DNA of 64,000 nucleotides from Clostridia bacterium (GCA_017937065.1 JAGBEI010000014.1:71154-135153); one strand, 5' to 3'. Positions 3,480 through 53,806 are shown, numbered from the stretch's first letter. The notes: generated from the letters alone by a model not told the origin. Made by a program: numbers and translations.

Positions 3480-4153
3480 ATTATATAATATCCCGCGCCG
3501 CGGCGGCTGAGAATTATCTCCGGCTCGGACGGTGTTTTCTCCACCTTGGCGCGCAGTCTGCCGATTGCGACGTCCACTGTGTGCAGGTCACCCAAAAAAT
3601 TGTTGTAGCCCCACACCTTTTCCAGTATTTCCTCGCGGGAGACGACCCGCCCGCGGTTTTGTACAAGAAGCATGAGAATTTCGTATTCCTTTTTGCTGAC
3701 CGAAATTTCCTCTCCGTTTTTTAAAACAGCCATTTTGTCGGCGTTTATTTCAAGGTCGCCTGCGGCAAAAACGGTTTCCTTTGGCGGCTTTTTCTCAGTG
3801 CGCGCAAGATTCACCTTTATGCGTGCAATAAGCTCGTTTACCGAAAACGGCTTTGTCACATAGTCGTCCGCCATAAGCGACAGTCCGCGCAGCTTATCCT
3901 CCTCGCTGTCCAGCGCGCTGAGGATTATAACCGGCATGTCCGATGTCTTACGCAGCTGCCGCAGCACCTCAAAGCCCGACATTGACGGCAGCATGAGATC
4001 CAGCACCAAAAGGTCGGCGCCTTCGTTTATAAGCCGGAAAAGCCCTGTCTTTCCGTCGCTCTCTGCCGCAGTCTCAAAGCCCGCCGCTTTGAGATTGAAT
4101 TCTATTATAGAGGAAATGCTGACGTCGTCCTCAAGAATAAATATCTTTTTCAT
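3476..4153 (-). CDS. OmpR/PhoB-family response regulator (WalR-like by eye)
   Basis: The receiver has EDD, LVLDLMLP and ADDYVTKPFS motifs, followed by a winged-helix C-terminus. There is a 4-nt overlap with the kinase gene. Confidence 0.9.
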   Translation of the reverse strand: MKKIFILEDDVSISSIIEFNLKAAGFETAAESDGKTGLFRLINEGADLLVLDLMLPSMSGFEVLRQLRKTSDMPVIILSALDSEEDKLRGLSLMADDYVTKPFSVNELIARIKVNLARTEKKPPKETVFAAGDLEINADKMAVLKNGEEISVSKKEYEILMLLVQNRGRVVSREEILEKVWGYNNFLGDLHTVDVAIGRLRAKVEKTPSEPEIILSRRGAGYYII

Positions 4154-6669
4154 CAGTCGTCCCTTTTCACCATCATTTCCTGATACTCCGCCATTGTCAT
4201 GATAACCTGTCTGGGCTTTGCGCCCTCGTACGGGCCGATTATACCCTTTTCCTCCATTGTGTCAATAATGCGCGCCGCTCTTGCGTAGCCCAGCGAGAAC
4301 TTGCGCTGCAAAACGGAGGTGGATGCCTTTCCGCTCTCGATGACAAATGCAACTGCCTGCCAGAACATCTCGTCCAGCTCCTCGCCGCCGTCGCGGTCTG
4401 CGGGCGCACTGCCGTCCTGCTTTGTATAGCTTTCCATGGCGTCGTTTGCGCTCTGGTCATAATCGGCGGTGCCGCAGTGGCGCTTTACGTATTCCACCAC
4501 CGTCTCGACCTCCTCGTCGCTGACAAAGCAGCACTGAATTCTCCGCGGAGAATTCATGGTTCTGCCCTTGAACAGCATATCGCCCTTGCCCAGCAGCTTT
4601 TCCGCGCCCGAACCGTCCAGAATGACGCGCGAGTCAATCTGCGATGTGACGGCAAACGCGATTCGGGAGGGTACGTTTGCCTTTATAAGCCCCGTTACAA
4701 CATTGACGGAGGGGCGCTGTGTTGCGATTATAAGGTAAATGCCGGCGGCGCGCGCCTTCTGACAGAGGCGCACAATATAGTCCTCCACCTCCTTGGCGCA
4801 GACCATCATAAGGTCGGCAAGCTCGTCAATGACAATTACAATCTGCGGCACCGTCTCGCACACGTCGGAATGCTTTTTGGCATAGGTATTGTAGCCGTGC
4901 ACGTTGCGTACGTTGACGCTGAAAAAGAGGTTGTAGCGCCGCTCCATCTCGTTTACCGCCCACTGGAGCGCGCCCGCTGCCTTTTTGGGGTTGGAGACGA
5001 CGGGGACGATAAGGTGCGGGATTTTGTTGTATACCTCCAGCTCCACCACCTTGGGGTCTATGAGTATCAGCTTTACGTCATTCGGGGACGCTTTGTACAG
5101 CAGCGACATAAGGATTGTGTTTATACATACCGATTTACCGGAGCCGGTAGCGCCCGCGACAAGCAGATGCGGCATGTCGGACAGGTCGCCGTATACGAGG
5201 TTGCCGGAAATGTCCTTGCCCAGTGCAACGGTTAGCGGGTTGCTGCTGCTTGTAAACTCGTCCGAGTCTAAAAGCTCTTTTATGTAAACCATGCTCTTTT
5301 TCTTGTTCGGTATCTCAATGCCGACCGCCGCCTTGCCGGGAATGGGCGCTTCAATTCTGATAGAGGTCGCCGCAAGCGACAGCGCGATGTCGTCCGACAG
5401 CGAGGTGATTTTGGAAACGCGCACGCCCTTGCTGGGCGCCAGCTCATAGCGTGTAACAATCGGTCCGATTGCCGCGCCGACCATTGTTGCCTCTATGCCG
5501 AAGTCACGCAGCGTTTGGATAAGCTTCTGCTCTGTCTGAGCAAGCTCGGTTTTGGAAATCCCGGTTGCCGCGCGCGGTGCTTCAAGCAGCGATGTGGGAG
5601 GGAAAATATAGCTTTCGTCTTTTTTTGCGCTTTCCGCAGACGCATGTCTGTCGGCGCGCACCGCGGTTTTTGCGGAGGAAAAAGCTGCGGGCGCAGAATC
5701 GGGGACTGCGGATAAGTTTTTGTCCGCTTTGTCCGCGTCATCAAAAACGCCGCTTCTGTCAATGTTTCCGACAACCATATCGGCGGTTGTTATGTATTCG
5801 TCGCGGTTTATGTCGTCATGCACAAAAAACGGCATGGGTGACGTCTGTTCAAACTGCGAGGTTTCGGTATTTTCTTCGTCCTGTACAAATATATCGGAGC
5901 GGGGCATGTCCCCCTGCCCTGATACGTCGTCCTGCTCGGAAAACTCTGTTTCCTCGTCCACGAAAATGTCTATTTTATTTTTCTTTTTCGGTTTTTCAAT
6001 ATGCGGCTTTACAACCTCCGGTTCATCGGGGTCGTGCTCCTCCCTTTCAAACGGAGCGCGCAGCTTTTTCCATATCTGATAAAGGGTAATGTCGAAAAAC
6101 GTGAGCGCACAGATAAGCGCCGCCGTAATAAACAGAATTGCAAAGCCGATTTTCGTCAGCAGGCAGATGAGCGGATACGCAAAAATTCCGCCCGCGATTC
6201 CGCCCGCACGGTTTACCATGTCGGGAATTCCCTTTATGAAGAACTGACCGAGGGAGAACGAGCCGAAATATTCACCGCTTTCAAAGAGGTAGCAAACGCC
6301 GCACAGCGACAGAACAAGCACAAGCCCCGTCCACAGCCGGGTAGGAGTGGACACGCGCCTGCGCTCTCTTGCAAGCTCGATTCCAAGCCACAGCGTCAGC
6401 ACGGGCAGGAGATAGGAAACATACCCGAATGCACCTCTGAACACCGTGCGCAGAAACGTGCCGAACGCGCCCAGAAAGTTGTGATATACCGAGAGAATGA
6501 GCAGCAGCGTCAGTGCGAAAAAGATGACTGACAGTACATTGTCCCGCACCTCTTTCCGAATTGGCTTTCGCGCAGCGCTCGTTTTTGCGCCGCCTGCCGC
6601 GGCTTTTTTACCAGCAGCAGACTTTGCTGCTGGTCTGTTTTTTGTTTTTCTTTCGTTTTTGACTGCCAT
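4153..6669 (-). CDS. ftsK: DNA translocase FtsK/SpoIIIE
   Basis: N-terminal TM helices, a long linker, Walker A GATGSGKS, and a C-terminal gamma winged helix (SVLQRKFSLGYARAARIID). Confidence 0.93.
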   Translation of the reverse strand: MAVKNERKTKNRPAAKSAAGKKAAAGGAKTSAARKPIRKEVRDNVLSVIFFALTLLLILSVYHNFLGAFGTFLRTVFRGAFGYVSYLLPVLTLWLGIELARERRRVSTPTRLWTGLVLVLSLCGVCYLFESGEYFGSFSLGQFFIKGIPDMVNRAGGIAGGIFAYPLICLLTKIGFAILFITAALICALTFFDITLYQIWKKLRAPFEREEHDPDEPEVVKPHIEKPKKKNKIDIFVDEETEFSEQDDVSGQGDMPRSDIFVQDEENTETSQFEQTSPMPFFVHDDINRDEYITTADMVVGNIDRSGVFDDADKADKNLSAVPDSAPAAFSSAKTAVRADRHASAESAKKDESYIFPPTSLLEAPRAATGISKTELAQTEQKLIQTLRDFGIEATMVGAAIGPIVTRYELAPSKGVRVSKITSLSDDIALSLAATSIRIEAPIPGKAAVGIEIPNKKKSMVYIKELLDSDEFTSSSNPLTVALGKDISGNLVYGDLSDMPHLLVAGATGSGKSVCINTILMSLLYKASPNDVKLILIDPKVVELEVYNKIPHLIVPVVSNPKKAAGALQWAVNEMERRYNLFFSVNVRNVHGYNTYAKKHSDVCETVPQIVIVIDELADLMMVCAKEVEDYIVRLCQKARAAGIYLIIATQRPSVNVVTGLIKANVPSRIAFAVTSQIDSRVILDGSGAEKLLGKGDMLFKGRTMNSPRRIQCCFVSDEEVETVVEYVKRHCGTADYDQSANDAMESYTKQDGSAPADRDGGEELDEMFWQAVAFVIESGKASTSVLQRKFSLGYARAARIIDTMEEKGIIGPYEGAKPRQVIMTMAEYQEMMVKRDD

Positions 6670-18712: not shown

Positions 18713-19396
18713 ATGGAAATACTGAAAATCGAAAATCTGACTAAGATTTACGGCAGCGGCGAAAATGAAGTGCGCGCTTTGGACGATGTATCCTTTTCGG
18801 TGGAAAAGGGCGAGTTTTTGGCTATAATCGGCCCGTCCGGCAGCGGAAAGTCCACGCTTTTGCATATGATAGGAGGCGTTGACCGCCCGACGTCGGGCAG
18901 AATACTTATGAACGGACAGGATGTTTACGCGCAAAACGAGGATCAGCTGGCAATTTTCAGGCGACGTCAGGTGGGGCTGATATACCAGTTTTATAATCTT
19001 ATTCCGATTTTAAACGTCACTGAAAATATGACGCTTCCCGTGCTGATGGACGGGCGGCGGGTAAACAATGACTTTTTAAACGAGCTTATAGACACGCTTG
19101 ACCTGCGCGGAAGAGAAAAACATCTTCCCAACCAGCTGTCGGGCGGACAGCAGCAGCGTGTTTCCATCGGCCGTGCGCTGATGAATATGCCGGCTGTCGT
19201 ACTGGCAGACGAGCCGACGGGCAATCTTGACTCAAAAAACAGTCAGGAGATTTTGGAGCTTTTGAAGCTGTCCAATAAAAAATACAATCAGACGCTTATT
19301 GTCATTACTCATGACGAGAATATTGCGATTCAGGCAGACCGCGTTATTTCCATTGAGGACGGTAAAATCACGCGGGACAGCGCAGCACGGGGGTAA
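18713..19396 (+). CDS. ABC transporter ATP-binding protein (MacB/FtsE-like)
   Basis: Walker [10 protein letters not shown], signature LSGGQQQRV, Walker [12 protein letters not shown]. Confidence 0.93.
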
Positions 19397-22078: not shown

Positions 22079-22100
22079 CTTCTTAATTCATTGCAAATTA

Positions 22101-22128
22101 AAACCGGACACTTTTGTGTCCGGTTTTA
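22101..22128. terminator. bidirectional intrinsic terminator
   Basis: AAACCGGACAC, loop TTTT, GTGTCCGGTTT. Confidence 0.85.
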
Positions 22129-22134
22129 TACTGT

Positions 22135-22779
22135 CTAAAATGCAAAATTGCACATGCTGCACCTGCCGCCGAGCTTTTTGAAAATCTCCGTAAATTCGGG
22201 ATACCTTTCAAACAGTCCGTCAACATTTCGCACCACCGTATCACCCTTGGTATAGGTCGAAATCAGAATCAGAGCCATTGCCATGTGCGGATTGTTTTTT
22301 GCATTCAACACCGTGTACTCCAACGACCGCTGCGGCCAGATCCACAAATCGTTGCCGTTAAACTCGCACCGCGCGCCCAGCGCATGGAGGTTTTCGATTA
22401 TAAGCTCCTGAAGCTCAGCCGCTGCGGCAAAGCCCGAAATGTGCGTTTTGCCCTTTGCAAACAGTGCCGGTATGGAGATTACAGGCGCTAATACCGGAAA
22501 TTCCTCGATATTGACATGACAGCCCCGCAGGGTATCGGCACGCACGTTTACGCTGTCGCCGCCGCGTGTGATTTTTGCGCCGAAGCGGCGCAGTATGTCC
22601 AGTACCATTTTTCCGTTTTGCTCGCTGCCTGCGTTCAGGTTTGTACAGATAACGGACGAATCAAGCGCCGCGCGCGCAAAAAACATGCCGGCAAAGCTGT
22701 AATCGCCGCTGTATTTTCCTATCAGCGGCGCGCTGAACTCGCCGCGTATATCGCATTTTTTAACTTCTATATCCGACAT
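22135..22779 (-). CDS. EPSP-synthase/EPT-fold protein, C-terminal half only, with catalytic residues substituted
   Basis: Aligns by eye to the C-terminal ~200 aa of AroA (ALFAKGKT, NNPHMAMAL, ERYPEF). Its own ATG lies 5 nt after the upstream stop. Confidence 0.65.
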   Translation of the reverse strand: MSDIEVKKCDIRGEFSAPLIGKYSGDYSFAGMFFARAALDSSVICTNLNAGSEQNGKMVLDILRRFGAKITRGGDSVNVRADTLRGCHVNIEEFPVLAPVISIPALFAKGKTHISGFAAAAELQELIIENLHALGARCEFNGNDLWIWPQRSLEYTVLNAKNNPHMAMALILISTYTKGDTVVRNVDGLFERYPEFTEIFKKLGGRCSMCNFAF

Positions 22780-22784
22780 TCCGT

Positions 22785-23594
22785 TTAAAACCGACCGTTA
22801 AATACCGACTGCATAAAGTCTGCGACCTGCTCTGAGGTTACACTTTCTTTTCCTGCAAGCTCGCTGTACCGCGCAAAAAGCGCCGCACTGTTCTGCGCGG
22901 TTTTTTGCTTGAATTCCTCACTCGGCTGCCATTTATAGCCCTTGTCCGCGCTGTATGCGTCATCTGCATTGTTTTTTTCGTTTATTTCTTCAATATAATC
23001 GCCCACGCGCAAGAGCAGATTTTTCGGCTCCGAAAAATCCGGAATGCGCGACAAAACCGCCGCTTTTGCCTTATCGTACTGACCGATATATTCTTCAAGA
23101 CTGCCGCCCGACAGCGCCTCTTTCTCATTCTGTGCAATCGTGACCATGCCTGCTGCGTCAATCCGCGGATATGCCTCGGTATAAATCGGCAGCAGATAGA
23201 TAAGCTCGTCTCCGTAAACCCAAGGCTGTGCGTCGATTATGTATGTTTCGCCTTTTTTCATGTTCATTCTTGATACAAACTCGTCTGTCGTGCCCAGGCA
23301 GTACAGCTTTGCCTGCCCCGACGGCGTGTAGCCGTCAAGGCTTTGGGTGATGTTGACTGTATACACAGTGTATTTTGTGAGGTCAATATTATATTTTGTA
23401 ATAAGTGCGTCCTCGGTTGCGACCGACAGAATTTCGCCCACAAAGAGATTTTTCTGAAGCTCGACCGTGTTTTCCAGGCGGCTTGTAATCGCCGTATCTT
23501 CGCCTACTATTTTCTGCCCCTGTCCGCTGTCGGCGCAGCCGCTGCACAAAAGCACCGCCGCTGTGAGAATCAGACCTATCAGTCGTTTTACCAT
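22785..23594 (-). CDS. lipoprotein of unknown function
   Basis: Lipobox LLCSGC is present after the start at MVKRLIG. That ATG overlaps the upstream stop (TAATG). Confidence 0.7.
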   Translation of the reverse strand: MVKRLIGLILTAAVLLCSGCADSGQGQKIVGEDTAITSRLENTVELQKNLFVGEILSVATEDALITKYNIDLTKYTVYTVNITQSLDGYTPSGQAKLYCLGTTDEFVSRMNMKKGETYIIDAQPWVYGDELIYLLPIYTEAYPRIDAAGMVTIAQNEKEALSGGSLEEYIGQYDKAKAAVLSRIPDFSEPKNLLLRVGDYIEEINEKNNADDAYSADKGYKWQPSEEFKQKTAQNSAALFARYSELAGKESVTSEQVADFMQSVFNGRF

Positions 23595-25585
23595 TATTGT
23601 TTTATATCCTCCTGTATATCCCAAATCTGATGCGACGGTGTGTTCTGACCGCGCCCGCTCGCGGGATTCCATACGTCGGACGAATTCTCGCCCTCCGGCG
23701 TGCCTTCGGAATTTTCGGGATTATCTGTCGTTTGTGAAGAATCGGACGTTTCGCCGCTGTCAGTGCCGTTCTCCGCGTCAGGCTTTGTGTCCGTCTCATT
23801 TGCCGGAGACTGAACCGTATCCGAGTCTGACGGGTTGTCCGTGCTTTCGGGCGTTTGGGACGGATTTTCCGTCCGCGTGCCCTCGCCCGTCTGTGTGCCG
23901 CTTTCATCATTGCTGCTGTCGGCGGGATTGCTCGTGCTCGGAGTGTCGCCGCCGCTTTCGGTGTCGGTCGGGGTTTGCGTTTCAGGCTCTATTTCCTCCG
24001 GCGTTACGCCGTCGTCGGTATCGGGCGCCGCGGGTTCTTCGGGAACCTCGGGAGTCTCCTGCGGGACGTCCTCGTAAACGCTTTCGGCATACAGCGCGAC
24101 CGCCTGCTCGAAGAATACGTTCTGGCGCTCGTAAAAGCTCTGCAATTTAAAATACATATCGGAAATTTTTTCGCCGAACTTAAACTCGTTTTCACTCTCT
24201 ATCTTGTTCTTCACCGCCTCCGCAATGCTGAACTTTGACGAGAGATCCAGCTCAACGCCCGTGTCGATAAGATTTTTGTAAAAAACGGGGGTGGAATATC
24301 CGTTTATAAGCATGGTGTCGTTAAGGCGCGCTATCTCCAGCCTGTCGCTGTAATCGGGCTTGATGTATGCGCGGATATAATGCGGCGCCCAGGAATCGTA
24401 AGGGTTTTCGGCGCGGATTGACATGCTGCTGATATCGAAAACGCACATGCCCTCGGGCATTTCCAGCTTGAAGGATGAGGTTGTGCCCAGCTCAAAATCG
24501 TCGGTGCCCAAAGTGTCTAACAGAAAGCTCTCGGTATACCCGCCGCTGGGCTTTTCGGAAAAGAAGGTGACGTCCAAAAACAGCCGCCCGTCGTAGTCCA
24601 GCGAGTCGGTTTCGGGGATATCCACGCCTTTTGTATAATAGGTAAGAATATTATTTTGGATTTGGATATTTACCGTTTCGATATCAAGATACAAAAATTT
24701 TCCGCCGTTAAGCCCCAGTGAATCGAGCGCGTCCGCCTTGAGCGTGTCGCTCATGAGCTCGGTCGCGCCTTTTTGCGCAAGGCTCAGATAATATGAGTAT
24801 ATCTGCTTTGTGCGGTTGTATTTATTGTTTTCACCGTGCACGATTTCCAGCGTTGACTGTTTGACGGTGTTTTCACCGTCGCCGAACACCGCAACGTCCT
24901 CCCAGCTCTCGCGCGCGAGCATCATCGGCTCGTTGCCGAGCAGAAAATAAACCCGCGCCCAGCGGCAGTGCCACTGGTCGTAATTGTTGTTGATGTCGGG
25001 CAGAACGGCAATCGTGTATTCGGTAATGTCAAACGGCGTATAGCCGAAAGGCAGAATGAGCGTGAACGTGTCGGTCATGCCGCTTTCGAAATTGTCGTAG
25101 TTTGAGTTTTGGAGCGCAAATTCGGTAGTATTTCCGTCGGAAAAGGCAAGGCGGATATTTACGCCGCCGCGGTCCAGCCCCACGCCGCGGGGGTTTATAT
25201 AGTTTTCGTCGTCTGTTTTAAGCGTGACCTGTATGCGGTTGGACGAGCCGAGCGCGTAAAGTGAGCGCAGATACGGCACCGTGTCGTCAAACTCGGTCAT
25301 GGTCAGGCGCGAGATAATGCGGCGGTTGCCGTCAAAAAACGGACAGACAAATTTTGTAAACAGCGCGGACATAACGCACAGCACCGCGATGCATGCCGCC
25401 GCGGCGCAGCCGGTGATAAACGGCACGCTTTTAATAAAGCTTTTAAATCGGGCGCTTTTGAAAAAGCGTTTTATTTTGCGCAAGGTGAATTTTATATTAA
25501 CCGCCGCCCATTTTTTCAGGCGTTTTCTGTAACGGTAATCGTTGAATTTTTCGATTAATTTTTTCAAGGCGGGATTTCCTTTCAA
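23594..25585 (-). CDS. single-pass membrane protein with two PLAT-like internal repeats and a long acidic Thr/Pro/Ser/Glu-rich tail
   Basis: Basic N-terminus followed by one TM. Repeat signature is F.L..P.G...FDI....I...D.W....R.Y. The last ~160 aa are low complexity. Confidence 0.6.
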   Translation of the reverse strand: MKGNPALKKLIEKFNDYRYRKRLKKWAAVNIKFTLRKIKRFFKSARFKSFIKSVPFITGCAAAACIAVLCVMSALFTKFVCPFFDGNRRIISRLTMTEFDDTVPYLRSLYALGSSNRIQVTLKTDDENYINPRGVGLDRGGVNIRLAFSDGNTTEFALQNSNYDNFESGMTDTFTLILPFGYTPFDITEYTIAVLPDINNNYDQWHCRWARVYFLLGNEPMMLARESWEDVAVFGDGENTVKQSTLEIVHGENNKYNRTKQIYSYYLSLAQKGATELMSDTLKADALDSLGLNGGKFLYLDIETVNIQIQNNILTYYTKGVDIPETDSLDYDGRLFLDVTFFSEKPSGGYTESFLLDTLGTDDFELGTTSSFKLEMPEGMCVFDISSMSIRAENPYDSWAPHYIRAYIKPDYSDRLEIARLNDTMLINGYSTPVFYKNLIDTGVELDLSSKFSIAEAVKNKIESENEFKFGEKISDMYFKLQSFYERQNVFFEQAVALYAESVYEDVPQETPEVPEEPAAPDTDDGVTPEEIEPETQTPTDTESGGDTPSTSNPADSSNDESGTQTGEGTRTENPSQTPESTDNPSDSDTVQSPANETDTKPDAENGTDSGETSDSSQTTDNPENSEGTPEGENSSDVWNPASGRGQNTPSHQIWDIQEDIKQ

Positions 25586-25713
25586 AAAAACTGTACATAA
25601 TAATTATATCACAGAATATCCGATTTTTAAATGTTTTTTTAAATTTAATAAATTTGCGTATAGTGCGCGCTTTTTTGTCAATAATAGTTACGAGCCCAAA
25701 GGAGAGATGAAAA

Positions 25714-25970: not shown

Positions 25971-26817
25971 ATATTTTTCTCTTTTTTCTGATAATCAAAA
26001 TTACAATGCCTGCCGCGATGAGAAGCAAGACAGCCCCGCCGATGTAAAAGGGCGTATAGTTATAAACTATTCTGTATGCGCCGCCGTTTAATTTAGGGTC
26101 TTTTTCCCACGGCATAAGATGTACGATTTGAACGGGATAGTCCTTGGCGTAAATTTTAAGCGCTTCCCTTGCGGTATAGATTTTCCCGTTTTCAAGGTCT
26201 GTGAAATCGGGGCGAGAGGTGTACGGAATGAGATACTCCGTGCCGCCTGCCAAGACGTATACAAAATCAAATTTGTCCGCCGTGACATATTTAATCTGCT
26301 CTATGTCCGTTATGTTTTTTTCTTTATTTAATTTTTCGGTAATTCCCTTTAGTGAGAAATCCAAATCGAGCTTGTTTCCGTCGTCGTCGGTGTAAACAGG
26401 ACTGTTTCCCGAACTGCCAAACTCCCAGCCGTCACCGTTGCTTCCGAATGAAATGTAAATATTTTCCTTATATAGAGGTATTATCCAGCTGTAATTGCTG
26501 TCAATCAGAGATGCAAAGCTGCCGTTTTTCTTGTAGTCATCGGCAATATAGCTTGTGTTCAGCCTGTATTTTTTATAGGCATTGTCCGTTTTTATGCTGC
26601 TTATAATTTCGTTTTTGTCAACGGAGGGGTTAAGGCTTAGCATCATGCTTGAGAAAAACTCACTGTTGGAGTCAATAAGCTGCTGAATTCGGCGCAGCTC
26701 TTCCCTGCTGTTTTCTTCTTCTCTTTTTATAAGGTCTTGCGCGCTTTCGGCAGAGCAGACACAGCACAGAATCGAAATTAGTGCAATTATTAATAGCATT
26801 ACGGCAGATTTTTTCAT
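25969..26817 (-). CDS. hypothetical exported protein with an N-terminal signal peptide and a C-terminal TM anchor with a basic tail
   Basis: 282-aa ORF, visibly AT-richer than its neighbours. I recognise no motif. Confidence 0.6.
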   Translation of the reverse strand: MKKSAVMLLIIALISILCCVCSAESAQDLIKREEENSREELRRIQQLIDSNSEFFSSMMLSLNPSVDKNEIISSIKTDNAYKKYRLNTSYIADDYKKNGSFASLIDSNYSWIIPLYKENIYISFGSNGDGWEFGSSGNSPVYTDDDGNKLDLDFSLKGITEKLNKEKNITDIEQIKYVTADKFDFVYVLAGGTEYLIPYTSRPDFTDLENGKIYTAREALKIYAKDYPVQIVHLMPWEKDPKLNGGAYRIVYNYTPFYIGGAVLLLIAAGIVILIIRKKRKI

Positions 26818-26881
26818 AATTTGACCTACGCCCTTTTTGTTTTATATTAGCATATTTATTTGCGGGTTGTCAAATTAAAGT

Positions 26882-26910
26882 AAAACACGGCGGTATACCG
26901 CCGTGTTTTT
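26882..26910 (-). terminator. intrinsic terminator (near-copy of the 25941 hairpin)
   Basis: Stem ACACGGCGG, loop TATA, stem CCGCCGTGT, flanked by A and T runs. Confidence 0.7.
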
Positions 26911-26931
26911 AAAGTAAGAAAACAAATGCGC

Positions 26932-26983
26932 TTTATTACATTTATTTCCATATAATATTATAAATGGAAATAAATGTAATAAA
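26932..26983. repeat. perfect 20-bp inverted repeat with a 12-nt spacer
   Basis: TTTATTACATTTATTTCCAT (26932-26951) is the exact reverse complement of ATGGAAATAAATGTAATAAA (26964-26983). Confidence 0.9.
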
Positions 26984-27059
26984 TATTAAATATTTAGTGT
27001 TCACCAATAAATACTGAAATTATTTTAAAGTTCAATTATAATAACATTGATGCAGGAAA

Positions 27060-27341
27060 TCACATCTTCTTTTTACGTGTTATCTTGTCGATAAAATCAG
27101 CACCGTTTATAAGATCAGCGGGGTCAACCTCCAAAGCTCTGGCAATATCAAAAAATATGTCTAAATTAAAAGATTTTGCAATTCCTGGCGCTTCAATTAC
27201 GCTGATGAGTGCGCGACTAACATTTGCTTTTTCGGCAAATTCAGCTTGTGACAAGCCCCTTATTCTTCTAAGCGTTGAAATTGTAGCGCTTAATTGTATA
27301 AGCTGATCCCGGCTTTCCGGCGACATCGTTCTATTTCCCAT
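27060..27341 (-). CDS. XRE-family HTH transcriptional regulator (paralog 1)
   Basis: HTH core is GLSQAEFAEKANVSRALISVIEAPG. The ATG at 27341 (MGNRT...) follows a GAGGTG RBS at 9-nt spacing. Confidence 0.8.
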   Translation of the reverse strand: MGNRTMSPESRDQLIQLSATISTLRRIRGLSQAEFAEKANVSRALISVIEAPGIAKSFNLDIFFDIARALEVDPADLINGADFIDKITRKKKM

Positions 27342-27409
27342 AAGTAAATTCACCTCAAAATAATTATATATTATATTTATGTAAAATTCAGCATATTATT
27401 CGTAAGATA

Positions 27410-27438
27410 TTGACAACAATCGTAAGCAAATATATAAT
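27410..27438 (+). promoter_or_regulatory. perfect consensus sigma-A promoter, antisense to XRE paralog 2
   Basis: TTGACA (27410-27415), 17-nt spacer, TATAAT (27433-27438). TCGTAAG direct repeats sit at 27400 and 27420. Confidence 0.55.
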
Positions 27439-27454
27439 ATAAATGATTTAACTA

Positions 27455-27703
27455 TTATTTCTCAGAGGCATCTATTAATTCTGCTGCACGTATATTCAAT
27501 GCATCTGCAATATCATATAAAACCTCTAAATCAAAGTCGCAAGCACTTCCTGGTGCTTCAATTACACTAAGATAAGAACGGCTAATGTCGGCGAGCTCGG
27601 CTAATTTATCCTGAGATAATCCTTGCTCCTTTCTAAGTTTGGCAATGGTTATACCTAACTGAACAAATCGATCACGATTCTTAAATTTGACTTCTTTTCC
27701 CAT
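27455..27703 (-). CDS. XRE-family HTH transcriptional regulator (paralog 2)
   Basis: HTH core is GLSQDKLAELADISRSYLSVIEAPG. AAGGAGA RBS. Confidence 0.8.
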   Translation of the reverse strand: MGKEVKFKNRDRFVQLGITIAKLRKEQGLSQDKLAELADISRSYLSVIEAPGSACDFDLEVLYDIADALNIRAAELIDASEK

Positions 27704-27749
27704 AATAGTATCTCCTTTGCTTCTTTAATATTATTATAAAAGATCTTTA

Positions 27750-27778
27750 TATATATTTCAGCATTTATATAAAAGCAA
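27750..27778 (-). promoter_or_regulatory. candidate sigma-A promoter for the XRE pair
   Basis: On the minus strand: TTGCTT, 17-nt spacer, TATATA. Confidence 0.4.
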
Positions 27779-27827
27779 TTAATAGGTATTTATAAGCTAT
27801 TGTGTTTCGGATTAACAAGGGAATAAT

Positions 27828-28205
27828 ATGAATAATAATCTGTCTTTGGAAAATATAGAAATAACTGTTTTAAATGATACAAGGTGCTCCATTGAGCAAA
27901 TCTGCAAATTAACAGGTATGACATCAGGGGAACTGATTGATCGTCTTGTACTGAAGTGGGAGCCACGAGACCCTATGTGCGCGGCGCAATTAATCTTAGA
28001 CAGTATTGTGATATACACAAGAAAAATGAATGATGAACAGTTTGATAAAACAATAGCGGTTGTATTCAATGTGCTTAAAGAATGTTTGAAAAAAGATGGC
28101 TTAAAGTCTTTGCGCGGTATATTTGAACAATTTGAGACCGCGCTTGGCGCAAAAAATATTTCAGCAGATGATTATGATATTTTAAAAAAAGTATTTCAAA
28201 AGTGA
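27828..28205 (+). CDS. hypothetical 125-aa helical protein
   Basis: ORF with an AAGGGA RBS. It is divergent from the XRE pair and has a possible HTH-like stretch (IEQICKLTGMTSGELIDRL). Confidence 0.55.
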   Translation: MNNNLSLENIEITVLNDTRCSIEQICKLTGMTSGELIDRLVLKWEPRDPMCAAQLILDSIVIYTRKMNDEQFDKTIAVVFNVLKECLKKDGLKSLRGIFEQFETALGAKNISADDYDILKKVFQK

Positions 28206-28336
28206 GCGCTGTGCGCTGCTGCCGTTTCCGCGGGATGTTCCTTTTTTTGATAATTTTTCGTTGTTATTCCCGCGGGAATTTGTGCAGTGCATTTACATAT
28301 ATTTCCATTTAGCTCTAAACATGCTGCTACATAAAA

Positions 28337-50122: not shown

Positions 50123-53100
50123 ATGATTACAAAATCGAACTTCAGAGATGTACTAAAGGCACTTTCTTTTATAGAAATATCCGCCGATTTATATGAAAAG
50201 CGGTATGAGATATTTGACTGTTCAATAACTGTTGATTTCAAAAAAGAAAAAATCACATACCCGGAGGATAAGGGTATGCGGATAGACCGCCATACAACGG
50301 ATAATTTTTCCGCAAACGAGAATTTTGTTGTTTTGGAATGCGTGGACAGGCTTTTATCAAAGGGCTATCGACCCGAGCACATTGAGCTTGAAAAGAAATG
50401 GTCTTTGGGACATATGATTTCCGGCGGAGAGGACAGCGGTTTTGCCGATATATGCGTTTACGGCAACGACGGCAAGGTTCTCTTTATCATAGAGTGCAAA
50501 ACCGCCGGAAGCAAATATGCAAGGGAATACGGCAAAATCCTGAGCTACGGCGGGCAGCTGTTTTCATATTGGCAGCAGCAGCGCAGCTGTAAGTTTATTA
50601 TTCTCTATGCCTCTGATTTTGCGGACGGCAGGCTGTTTTATACAACCGACAGCGTGGATTGCAGCGACGACCGGAATATCCTTGCCCTTGCCGAGAAAGA
50701 CGATTCTATTCTGCTCTACAAAAATGCACATGCCGTAGAGGATTTATACGCCGTATGGGATGAAACGTACGAAAGGCGTTTTTGCGGTGACGTCGTTTTC
50801 CGCGATGACTCCGTCGCATATAAAATCGGCGCGAAACCGCTTCGCAAGGGCGATCTCAAGGATATCAGAGAAAACGATAAGATTGTCAATAAATTTGAAG
50901 AAATTCTGCGCCATAACAGTGTTTCCGACAAGGAAAACGCCTTTAACAGACTGATTGCCCTTTTCATCTGCAAGCTCGTTGATGAAATTCAGAAGGGCGA
51001 TAACGATGAGGTGGAATTTCAGTATCGGGTAGGAACCGACACATACGAATCTCTGCAGGACAGACTTCAGCGCTTACATAAGGAGGGCATGGAGAAGTTT
51101 ATGCGCGAGGAGATTTTCTATGTTCCGGATACCTATGCCGAGGAATTGGTACAGCAGTACTGCGGGTATAAGCGCAGGAATATGATTGAAGACCTGAAAA
51201 GGACACTGCGCATTCTGAAGTTTTACACAAATAATGACTTTGCCTTTAAAAATGTTCATAATGAGGAGCTGTTCTATCAAAACGGTAAAATAGTTGTGGA
51301 AGTGGTGAAGCTTTTTGAGCGTTACCGAATTATCGACTCTTCCGATGTGCAGATGCTCGGTGATTTGTTTGAGCAGCTGCTTAATAAAGGCTTTAAACAA
51401 AATGAAGGACAGTTTTTCACGCCTATTCCGATTACAAGGTTTATCTGGGACAGTCTTCCCGTTACAGGGACAGTCAAAAAGGAACGCGGTGCGGAGTATC
51501 CGAAAATAATAGACTATGCCTGCGGCGCAGGTCATTTTTTGACGCAGGGCGTGGAGGCTGTCGATGCAGCTGTTAAAAAGACCAATCCCTCTGCCGAAAA
51601 CGGACACTCCTGGATAGAGAACAGGGTTTACGGTATAGAAAAAGACTACCGCCTTGCCCGCGTGTCGAAAATATCCCTGTTCATGCACGGCGCGGGAAAT
51701 GCAAATGTGATATTCGGCGACGGTCTTGAAAATTATTCCGACAAGGGAATCGTGCCGGGCAGCTTTGACATTCTTGTTGCCAACCCGCCTTACGCGGTTA
51801 AGGCGTTTAAGAGCCATTTGAAGCTGAAGAACAATTCGTTCAGGCTGCTGAATAAAATCACAAATGACGGTTCTGAAATCGAGACGCTTTTTGCCGAGCG
51901 TATTTCACAGCTGCTAAAGCCCGGCGGTATAGCCGCGGTTATTCTGCCATCTTCAATACTGAGCAACGATTCCGGCAGTTATACGGGAGCGCGAGAGGAG
52001 CTTTTACAGCATTTTCGTATTTGTGCAATTACCTGCTTCGGCAGTAAAACCTTCGGTGCGACGGGGACGAATACGGTTGTTTTGTTTCTGCAAAAGCTTG
52101 ATGAGACGCCCGCGCGCTTTAAATTGGCGGAGGACAGCGCAGATGCAGTTCTTTCCGGCAGATCCCTTGAGAATTGGGAGGACGGGGAAATATATTATTC
52201 CTACCTTGCACAAGTTGAGTGTGACAGGAAATTTTACAGAGCCTTAATCAAAGAATCAAAGCCGTACGGCTATTTCGCAAACGATAAATACCTGAAAAAC
52301 TATACCGCTGCGTTTGAGGAGCTTGCGGATGTAAAAGCCAAGAAAAGGCAGAAAACATTTAAGAACATGAGCGCCGGGGAGCAGGCAAAATGGATGAATC
52401 AGCGTTTCTATGCCTTTGTTAAGGAAAGAGAAAAGGAAAAGCTGATGTATTTTGCCATGGTTTACAAGCAGACGGTTTTGATTGTTACAGCGCCTGCGGA
52501 CAATGCAAAACAGAAAGCGTTTCTCGGCTATGACTGGAGCAACCGCAAGGGCAATGAGGGTATTGTTATCAATACGCCCGGAGGAATGCTGTATGACGAC
52601 AGCGACCGCTTTGCAGACGATACGCTTTCCGGCATGATACGTGATTCGTTTGCCGGTAAGCTGAGATCGCTGCCGAAATATGAGCAATACTATCGCTATG
52701 CAAATCTGCGTGATATGATTGATTTTTCACGGGTTGAATTTAACAAGGCGATAAAGACTGCCGTCAAAAATAGGCTTCAAAGCAAATACCCTCTTGTACC
52801 TTTGAAAACATTATTGCTGGATATTATCGGAAATACCACTAAGACGGCAAATACAGATACCCTGCCGAGCGGGAGTATCCCTGTCGTTTCGCAAAATACG
52901 GATTCGTTAATAAGCGGCTATGTTGAAACAAGCAGACCTATAGAGGACTTGCCCGTTATATTGTTCGGTGATCATACCTGTTGTTTCAAGTATATTGATT
53001 TTCCGTTTGTAAGGGGCGCGGACAATACGCAGCTTTTAAAATTCAACGACACCGTTATTCCGAAATATATGTATTACGTGCTGCCGGAAATTGAAATCGA

Positions 53101-53806
53101 AAATAAGGATAAATACGAAAGACATTTCAAGTATTTAAAACAGGCGCTTGTCCCCGTTGCGCCGCTCGATATTCAGCAGAAAATCGTTGACGAGTGTGCC
53201 TTAATAGACGAGGAGTATAACGCTGTGCGTACAGCTATTGAAAAACATCGGGAAAGCATTGAAAAACTTTTTGCCGAGGCTGCAGCGTCAGGCGGGACAA
53301 CGGTAAGGCTTGACTCTTCGGAATTATTCGCGCTCGGTATAGGAAAGCGGGTTTTGAAAAAGCAGATTACGGATACAGGCATACCTATTTACAGTGCAAA
53401 CGTAAACGAGCCTTTCGGATATATAGAGGATGCTGTGTTTGATGATTATTCTGTCGGCACCGTTATCTGGGGGATTGACGGCGATTGGGATGTAAGCTAT
53501 ATCCCGCCGCAGACTCCGTTCTATCCGACAGACCACTGCGGAACCCTGCGTGTTTTATCCGACGGAATAAACGCGCATTATGTTGCTTTCGCTCTCAAGG
53601 CGGAGGGCATACGGCAGAGATTTACCCGCTCAAACCGTGCGTCAGCCGACCGTGTGAAGGCGTTGAGATTAACGCTGCCCGATAAAAAAGTACAGGACGA
53701 TTTTACGGCAAAGGCAGAAAAAGCAGATACTGAAATCGCAAAGCTCAATGCAAGGCTTGCGGCTGTCAACGCGGCAAAACGGGATGTGCTGAAAAAATAT
53801 TTGTGA
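50123..53806 (+). CDS. single-chain restriction-modification-specificity enzyme (Type IIB/IIG-like)
   Basis: N-terminal PD-(D/E)xK (FADICVY...FIIECK). Gamma-class N6-adenine methyltransferase with motif I DYACGAGHFL and motif IV NPPY. The C-terminus holds two HsdS-like target-recognition domains separated by helical spacers. Confidence 0.8.
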   Translation: MITKSNFRDVLKALSFIEISADLYEKRYEIFDCSITVDFKKEKITYPEDKGMRIDRHTTDNFSANENFVVLECVDRLLSKGYRPEHIELEKKWSLGHMISGGEDSGFADICVYGNDGKVLFIIECKTAGSKYAREYGKILSYGGQLFSYWQQQRSCKFIILYASDFADGRLFYTTDSVDCSDDRNILALAEKDDSILLYKNAHAVEDLYAVWDETYERRFCGDVVFRDDSVAYKIGAKPLRKGDLKDIRENDKIVNKFEEILRHNSVSDKENAFNRLIALFICKLVDEIQKGDNDEVEFQYRVGTDTYESLQDRLQRLHKEGMEKFMREEIFYVPDTYAEELVQQYCGYKRRNMIEDLKRTLRILKFYTNNDFAFKNVHNEELFYQNGKIVVEVVKLFERYRIIDSSDVQMLGDLFEQLLNKGFKQNEGQFFTPIPITRFIWDSLPVTGTVKKERGAEYPKIIDYACGAGHFLTQGVEAVDAAVKKTNPSAENGHSWIENRVYGIEKDYRLARVSKISLFMHGAGNANVIFGDGLENYSDKGIVPGSFDILVANPPYAVKAFKSHLKLKNNSFRLLNKITNDGSEIETLFAERISQLLKPGGIAAVILPSSILSNDSGSYTGAREELLQHFRICAITCFGSKTFGATGTNTVVLFLQKLDETPARFKLAEDSADAVLSGRSLENWEDGEIYYSYLAQVECDRKFYRALIKESKPYGYFANDKYLKNYTAAFEELADVKAKKRQKTFKNMSAGEQAKWMNQRFYAFVKEREKEKLMYFAMVYKQTVLIVTAPADNAKQKAFLGYDWSNRKGNEGIVINTPGGMLYDDSDRFADDTLSGMIRDSFAGKLRSLPKYEQYYRYANLRDMIDFSRVEFNKAIKTAVKNRLQSKYPLVPLKTLLLDIIGNTTKTANTDTLPSGSIPVVSQNTDSLISGYVETSRPIEDLPVILFGDHTCCFKYIDFPFVRGADNTQLLKFNDTVIPKYMYYVLPEIEIENKDKYERHFKYLKQALVPVAPLDIQQKIVDECALIDEEYNAVRTAIEKHRESIEKLFAEAAASGGTTVRLDSSELFALGIGKRVLKKQITDTGIPIYSANVNEPFGYIEDAVFDDYSVGTVIWGIDGDWDVSYIPPQTPFYPTDHCGTLRVLSDGINAHYVAFALKAEGIRQRFTRSNRASADRVKALRLTLPDKKVQDDFTAKAEKADTEIAKLNARLAAVNAAKRDVLKKYL

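Follow-up and report, generated by a model that had tools for sequence, protein, structure and literature searches.

A Clostridial gene that encodes one lobe of a two-lobe enzyme raises the question of what, if anything, its product does for the cell. EPSP synthase (EPSPS) of the shikimate pathway and MurA are two-lobe enzymes, and both lobes close on the substrates for chemistry to occur. The gene lies in a 64,000-nucleotide stretch of DNA from a Clostridia bacterium, which was analyzed as a whole and is called the window here; coordinates without a locus label refer to it. The coding sequence (22135-22779, minus strand) runs from an ATG to a TAG and specifies a stand-alone EPSPS-fold domain of 214 amino acids, the half-EPSPS protein. 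The product is identical in sequence to NCBI entry MBP3480639.1, "hypothetical protein J6K66_03440 [Clostridia bacterium]", from a Clostridia metagenome-assembled genome (MAG). The exact 214-aa protein is present in at least 99 sample blocks, one of these a 2.1-Mb contig. Some annotation pipelines (JGI names) call members of the family "3-phosphoshikimate 1-carboxyvinyltransferase". On the sequence evidence, this is a working protein with a changed job and not a broken gene. We place the probability at roughly 0.55 that it is a functional, cytoplasmic, one-domain pseudoenzyme that is derived from aroA and acts by binding.

The homology to EPSPS is far beyond chance. A preliminary description of this locus had aligned the protein by eye with only the C-terminal half of AroA, and Pfam, phmmer, hhalign, and Foldseek all support this placement. 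The Pfam model PF00275 matches at 79 bits (E = 3.8e-22; gathering cut-off, 22.8 bits), aligning residues 24-198 with profile positions 233-415 of 417. A phmmer search of PDB sequences matches residues 234-405 of E. coli AroA (1G6S; E = 2e-10), and hhalign aligns the family profile across residues 231-420 of E. coli AroA (reference sequence identical to 1G6S_A) with a probability of 97.7%. The three motif pairs noted by eye are recovered in both the phmmer and the hhalign alignments. An AlphaFold2 model built with the family alignment as input forms a single lobe (pLDDT 92.7, pTM 0.90). When this model is compared to the PDB with Foldseek, EPSPS is the top match and MurA is found as well (E ~1e-14, probability 1.00), with superposition on their C-terminal lobes at an rmsd of 2.0-2.5 Å over 184-194 columns. 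The TM-score is ~0.75 when normalized to the query and ~0.38 when normalized to the target, which shows that the model spans one of the two EPSPS/MurA lobes. In the model, the predicted order of strands and helices fits three beta-alpha-beta-alpha-beta-beta units, the three-unit, inside-out alpha/beta lobe of the EPT/RTPC-like fold. The two-lobe architecture of ~400-450 aa at equivalog score is not found in the 214-aa protein, which reaches 83.1 bits against the AroA equivalog TIGR01356 (cut-off 287.25) and 40 bits against the MurA model TIGR01072 (cut-off 392.7).

In published EPSPS structures, the lobe of residues ~241-427 also takes in residues 1-19 from the N-terminus, which complete it. 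The half-EPSPS protein begins ~25 residues ahead of the classical domain boundary, and its first strands (residues 3-7 and 12-15, pLDDT >90 in the model) correspond by homology to the F-x-I-x-G...Y hairpin found ahead of this boundary in full-length AroAs. These two strands may fill the place of the missing AroA N-terminal strand. An internal deletion, in which AroA residues 1-19 were fused to residues 241-427, was considered and rejected because the matches to full-length AroAs are collinear (profile position 4-9 to target residues about 116 and 218) and because the N-terminal strands align with the hairpin. Two other candidate features were set aside. A Walker-A-like A-x4-GKT stretch is not a P-loop but a helix-turn-strand inherited from AroA. 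A metal site, hinted at by a neighboring cation-diffusion-facilitator (CDF) gene and by C45 and C138, is doubtful: these cysteines occupy buried hydrophobic positions of AroA, and a C-terminal CxxC is found only in some members (its Cys210 is kept in 52% of the family).

Though the fold is retained, the active site is not. The columns of 58 family members were compared to those of 125 full-length relatives in which KESDR and DHR are kept, over the C-terminal half. The equivalents of D313, K340, E341, R344, D384, H385, R386, and K411 are 94-100% conserved in these catalytic relatives and are replaced in the half-EPSPS family. The catalytic Asp313, an Asp in 99% of the relatives, becomes Gln, Val, or Lys in the family, with Gln in 81% of members and Val in the window protein (V96; 22492-22494, minus strand). 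In place of the K340-E341-x-D-R344 block, whose three named residues are 99%, 99%, and 100% conserved in the relatives, is a loop (A118-E122; 22414-22428, minus strand) at which the family varies most, and the R344 column is Leu in 91% of members. The only acidic residue of this loop, E122, is 48% conserved and falls under E341, D343, or R344 depending on which of three aligners is used; no basic residue lies opposite K340 or R344 in any of the three alignments. The His385-Arg386 positions, both 100% conserved in the relatives, are occupied in the family by Pro (91%) and by Tyr, Phe, or His (Tyr in 81%), and in the window protein by P164-H165 (22285-22290, minus strand). D384, also 100% conserved in the relatives, is His or Asn. 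Lys411, present in 94% of the relatives, corresponds to a variable family position that is E191 here (22207-22209, minus strand), and it is followed by R192, which is 98% conserved in the family and is Ser at its AroA counterpart. The Asp of the QGD motif (D273) is found in 98% of the catalytic relatives, versus Gly in 98% of the family, and the E240 equivalent is Gly or Ser. The substitutions first read by eye, D313 to V, H385/R386 to P/H, and K411 to E, thus map to V96, P164/H165, and E191, and the catalytic residues do not reappear in a profile alignment. The initial statement that the KETDR block is absent was essentially right, with the exception that a Glu (E122) may occupy the E341 position.

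The N-terminal lobe of EPSPS contains the S3P- and PEP-binding residues K22, R27, G96, R124, S169-Q171, S197, and Y200. This lobe is encoded neither in the window nor at 31 related loci. The half-EPSPS protein has no S3P/PEP-binding lobe and has lost all conserved active-site residues of the lobe that is left, so on sequence grounds it cannot synthesize EPSP by itself.

The half-EPSPS family consists of ~60 orthologues of 209-230 aa with 42-93% identity, and all of the source organisms are MAGs of uncultured gut Clostridia or Eubacteriales. A word-indexed search returned 63 relatives, 57 of which are near-full-length (209-230 aa), with 54-90% identity across their whole length. In an exhaustive HMM search that covered 1.84 billion representatives, the family is isolated at 398-167 bits, with its own representative at 398 bits; the most divergent member, P0064, scores 218 bits (205 aa, 42% identity). 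Below the family, at 134 bits or less, are full-length AroAs of ~420 aa that align collinearly (profile 9-207 versus residues 218-419). The nearest full-length relatives are the AroAs of uncultured Clostridia and Clostridiales. Within the family alignment, 26 columns are invariant and 59 are nearly invariant.

The genes are maintained. All 13 orthologue coding sequences examined are intact, and dN/dS (Nei-Gojobori, pairs with unsaturated dS) is 0.056 between the window and locus L006 and 0.073, 0.059, and 0.12 in further pairs. For the same genome pair, twelve neighboring genes have dN/dS values of 0-0.17, with 0.044 for Spo0A, 0.10 for a 663-aa protein, and 0.17 for a lipoprotein. The preliminary description had considered the gene to be retained and not debris, and this is upheld by the absence of frameshifts from the 13 coding sequences and by dN/dS of 0.06-0.12 across orthologues, as low as that of Spo0A next door. 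Frameshifts or stops, dN/dS near 1, and a lack of expression signals are the marks of a pseudogene, and they are not seen here. What the sequences indicate is the combination expected of a pseudoenzyme, the loss of catalytic residues under purifying selection. One frameshifted version, P0052, is encoded on a 536,759-bp ENA contig from the same species. The lipoprotein and Spo0A (P0357, P0374) are truncated on this contig too, which is an indel-rich, error-rich assembly and no evidence of pseudogenes. The P0052 frameshift is read as an assembly error because the same contig breaks at least three unrelated genes.

The early observation that no N-terminal half is encoded nearby extends to the window and 31 related loci. 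A PF00275 scan of 43 further window ORFs, which are all others of at least 150 aa without overlap to a longer ORF except the ABC-ATPase gene at 18713-19396, gave no second match, and no PF00275 domain is present in the called neighbors at related loci. When the N-terminal halves of 11 AroAs were searched by tblastn against the window and 29 related loci (443 kb), no remnant was detected, and the only matches were to internal repeats of the half-EPSPS gene. Among the best 120 matches listed for two AroA searches, none is on a contig sized like the half-gene contigs. These searches for the N-terminal half ranged over the 64-kb window and flanks of 7-10 kb at the other loci. Within the window and flanks, neither a cognate N-half gene nor intact catalytic residues, the two components of a split EPSP synthase, were found. 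A 199-codon open frame upstream of the gene in L013 was also considered, but it is only the antisense of a CDF gene.

In the window, the half-EPSPS gene is the third and last of three co-directional genes. The first (23594-25585, minus strand) encodes the 663-aa protein, and the second (22785-23594, minus strand) encodes the lipoprotein, which is 269 aa long and starts with MVKRLIGLILTAAVLLCSGC; neither belongs to a Pfam family. The stop of the 663-aa gene and the start of the lipoprotein gene overlap by 1 nt. The lipoprotein gene ends in TAA (22785-22787), and the half-EPSPS ORF is intact and starts 5 nt past this stop, as reported previously. The lipobox is conserved in five homologues (L001, L006-8, L017). 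The 663-aa protein has an acidic C-terminal tail of ~150 aa that is rich in Glu, Thr, Pro, Ser, and Asp. Two spurious ORFs, 23467-24150 (plus strand) and 23602-23910 (minus strand), overprint the low-complexity, GC-rich tail of this gene and are composition artefacts. Upstream of the 663-aa gene is a promoter-like TTTAAA-17-TATAAT with an extended TG (25603-25631, minus strand), a consensus match only and a candidate for the operon promoter. At the other end, a perfect 12-bp hairpin with A/T-run flanks (22100-22127) is located between the convergent half-EPSPS and FtsX-permease genes. The hairpin folds on either strand, at -20.8 and -22.4 kcal/mol (z about -8), and looks like a bidirectional intrinsic terminator. 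It escaped a consensus terminator scan, probably because its stem takes up the T run. Beyond the hairpin is the convergent ABC-ATPase/FtsX-permease pair.

Half-EPSPS genes are found in three classes of context. Class A, with the 663-aa, lipoprotein, and half-EPSPS genes in a row, includes the window, L006-L008, L025-L029, and the distant L017 (55% identity). In class B the gene is divergent from a CDF gene (L005, L013, L019, L023, L024, and the P0064 locus), and in class C it is beside DAGK_cat and the type II dehydroquinase gene aroQ (L001, L020, L022). Genes for DUF378, ClpC, AhpC, DUF3810, MatE, and SLH proteins recur loosely around the half-EPSPS loci. These neighborhoods look like one slowly rearranging chromosomal region and not a functional operon, and because the three classes are unrelated, context provides no functional lead. 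As a matter of speculation, the proximity of aroQ is compatible with descent from an aroA gene that was once inside an aro cluster. The placement of the gene at the end of an envelope operon holds for the window, its close relatives, and one distant member, but it is not a property of the family, as the CDF and DAGK_cat-aroQ contexts demonstrate. Of the three classes, only A has the lipoprotein gene as a neighbor and the three genes in a row; L001 does carry the pair, but other genes lie between it and the half-EPSPS gene.

Several features of these regions were recorded in passing. The 663-aa and lipoprotein genes are always an overlapping pair (window, L001, L006-8, L025-29). In L030, beside the gene for P0064, the CDF gene (3681-4864, minus strand) is called as two pieces of 222 aa and 126 aa and may be frameshifted. 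A low-GC islet at 26750-28250 of the window (GC 0.32-0.35 versus ~0.5 around it) contains Xre-type HTH ORFs at 27060-27353 and 27455-27703 (both minus strand) and a 125-aa ORF at 27828-28205 (plus strand). In strains with an identical half-EPSPS protein (L025-L029), the islet position holds AAA_14/DUF4143 or SLH and Peptidase_C39_2 genes, and this is a strain-variable spot. Further away, at 50123-53806 (plus strand), a single 1227-aa chain combines N6_Mtase/Eco57I methylase domains with an HSDR_N-like N-terminus and resembles a fused, type IIG-like restriction-modification enzyme.

How the gene would be expressed is suggested by the loci of class B. The pattern TTGAAA-N16-18-TAYAAT-N5-7-ATG has one match in each of 8 loci (7 distinct contigs). 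The matches end at the half-EPSPS ATG every time, and none is found elsewhere in the 32 loci. The sites are located at 8005-8042 in L005, 6360-6397 in L011, 3414-3451 in L013, 9966-10003 in L014, 7966-8003 in L019, 6077-6114 in L023, and 6966-7003 in L024. The loci with this pattern are those of class B plus L011 and L014, the flanks of which are unannotated. The pattern implies a dedicated sigma-A-type promoter and shows that expression of the half-EPSPS gene does not depend on any envelope genes. It also fixes the start codon, and longer gene calls of 228-230 aa (P0038, P0045, P0051) were rejected since the extension is translated promoter. No Shine-Dalgarno sequence is present at the seven promoter-abutting starts. 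Because the promoter ends 5-7 nt before the ATG, the mRNA at these loci is suggested to be leaderless.

A pathway from enzyme to pseudoenzyme can be proposed from these observations. A copy of aroA lost roughly its first 215 codons, leaving the C-terminal lobe of a Clostridial EPSP synthase to stand alone. The two N-terminal strands would complete the third folding unit, which is the role of residues 1-19 in the full enzyme, and the protein would act by binding, as a pseudoenzyme without EPSP synthesis. The former cleft face is without about ten conserved charges (E240, D273, D313, K340, E341, R344, D384, H385, R386, and K411), and its loops have the conserved hydrophobic or aromatic residues F94, F117, L123, P164, and Y/H165. 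An uncharged, aromatic cleft face of this kind is more typical of a protein-protein interface than of a phosphorylated-substrate site. On strands whose inward hydrophobic residues are conserved in AroA, the outward positions are the family-specific invariant W146, W148, and R184. The W146-I147-W148 codons (22336-22344, minus strand) are on a beta-strand, and the AroA counterparts of these Trp residues are variable and polar. The alternation pattern suggests that the Trp side chains are exposed, and the strand is a candidate interaction surface; the exposure and clustering of conserved residues were deduced throughout from strand alternation and knowledge of the EPSPS fold. The remodeled cleft face, together with W146/W148 and R184/R192, would then serve as a protein-protein interface for homodimer formation or partner docking. 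Many polar residues that are invariant and specific to the family (R36, R72, N78, K111, N130, E139, Q150, R184, D187, and R192) could just as well make up a new active site or a small-molecule site. The preliminary description had proposed a retained pseudoenzyme or binding module. The retained, catalytically degenerate, stand-alone half stands, as fold, origin, loss of catalytic residues, selection, and independent expression are all shown; that it binds rather than catalyzes, and by which surface, we infer.

Other explanations differ in how they account for the same evidence. That the gene is a decaying aroA fragment whose frame is open by chance is refuted by the selection analysis. It is a truncated enzyme homologue without catalytic residues, and the 536,759-bp contig does encode a frameshifted version, but length and start codon are kept across 42-93% identity, the gene is under purifying selection and has a dedicated promoter, and that contig is the error-rich assembly described above. 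Nearly as improbable, and essentially excluded, is a split EPSP synthase subunit that reassembles with a separately encoded N-terminal half. A break near residue 215 leaves a complete lobe, and in the account given in PMC3922620, separately expressed fragments of engineered split EPSPS reassociate and regain activity without protein splicing (Chen et al. 2001, Chin et al. 2003). However, all eight conserved catalytic or ligand-binding residues of the C-terminal lobe are replaced, and neither a gene nor a remnant of the N-terminal half is present in the window or the 31 loci.

An accessory role in an envelope operon, where the protein would work with the upstream 663-aa membrane protein and the lipoprotein, is quite improbable as well. 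The 1-nt overlap and the 5-nt gap are tight stop/start coupling, and the window shares the lipoprotein-half pair with L006-L008 (72-93% identity) and with the distant L017 (55%). In L001, though, genes for L28, HprK, and ROK intervene between the 663-aa/lipoprotein pair and the half gene; at least ten other loci have neither partner nearby, and the half gene has its own promoter; and the lipoprotein is exported, whereas the half-EPSPS protein has no signal peptide. A new enzyme is unlikely: the lobe, probably by pairing into a homodimer with a two-lobe cleft formed anew, would use the family-specific invariant residues R36, R72, K111, E139, R184, D187, and R192 for a different reaction or to bind a different anionic substrate. 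In its favor are roughly 30 family-specific positions with conservation of 90% or more, five basic and two acidic residues among them, selection that equals in strength that on housekeeping enzymes, and the survival of two EPSPS-fold motifs at helix N-termini, GD-S-A and S-x-Q. Yet no part of the protein varies more than the former K340/E341/R344 loop, the former cleft face is uncharged, unlike a phosphorylated-substrate site, and no metabolic genes are recurrently co-localized save aroQ, in 3 of ~16 contexts. Somewhat more doubtful than the new enzyme is the possibility that the lobe is a regulator that docks, by its remodeled cleft face, onto a two-lobe enolpyruvyl transferase of the same cell (AroA or MurA) or onto itself, or that it provides a new ligand-binding or catalytic site.

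Whichever partner the binding pseudoenzyme would have, the existence of a clade-wide, stand-alone lobe under strong selection means that one EPSPS lobe evolves as a unit of its own and can be recruited elsewhere. If the reading as a regulator or new site were true, the family would be the enolpyruvyl-transferase fold's first natural case of a single lobe with a function of its own, and as a regulator it would control the flux of aromatic amino-acid or peptidoglycan precursors. EPSPS labels on half proteins would miscredit gut Clostridia in surveys of the shikimate pathway or of glyphosate sensitivity. The immediate impact is modest since the family is small and found in uncultured organisms only. 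No account of a natural stand-alone or truncated EPSPS domain turned up in the literature searched. A curated EPSPS survey drops sequences shorter than 350 aa as truncated (bioRxiv 10.1101/2020.05.27.118265), and the family has been overlooked because EPSPS surveys discard such sequences.

Compared to known systems, the half-EPSPS protein is closest to full-length Clostridial AroA (EC 2.5.1.19; P0066, P0398), with ~30-34% identity, the same C-terminal lobe fold, and the shared motifs GD-S-A, NL-x-x-S-x-Q, G-K-T-x-I, and Y-P-x-F...LGG. Unlike AroA, it is half the length, has one lobe and replaced active-site residues, and belongs to an isolated clade. MurA is a member of the same two-lobe fold family, and its structure 1UAE fits about as well as EPSPS (query-normalized TM-score, 0.77), but the sequence similarity is much weaker, and the lobe with the catalytic Cys115 loop of MurA is absent here. 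The engineered EPSPS fragments keep the catalytic residues and need an N-terminal partner; the half-EPSPS protein has neither.

Degenerate EPSPS homologues in metagenomes (P0067/P0082, P0087, P0147) have also lost KESDR and DHR, but they keep N-lobe sequence. P0067, P0087, and P0147 are full-length (414-427 aa), and P0082 (349 aa) is a relative of P0067 with a truncated N-terminus; by their sequences, all four may be two-lobe pseudo-EPSPS proteins. P0147 and the half-EPSPS family have in common a Pro at His385 and GKT-x-I-x-GF, and a crude NJ tree places them together. As a full-length sister, P0147 was rejected: it is a singleton, its nearest relatives, at 39% identity or less, are ordinary AroAs, and its grouping may well be long-branch attraction.

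Rcl1 is a non-catalytic RNA-cyclase-like protein of the EPT/RTPC-like superfamily that has a binding role, with Bms1 as its partner. It is the best functional analogy for the proposed role of the half-EPSPS protein, for which it would represent the same course within one fold superfamily, namely catalysis lost and the protein retained for binding. Rcl1 differs in being eukaryotic, full-length, and derived from RtcA instead of AroA, and the likeness is drawn at the level of the fold.
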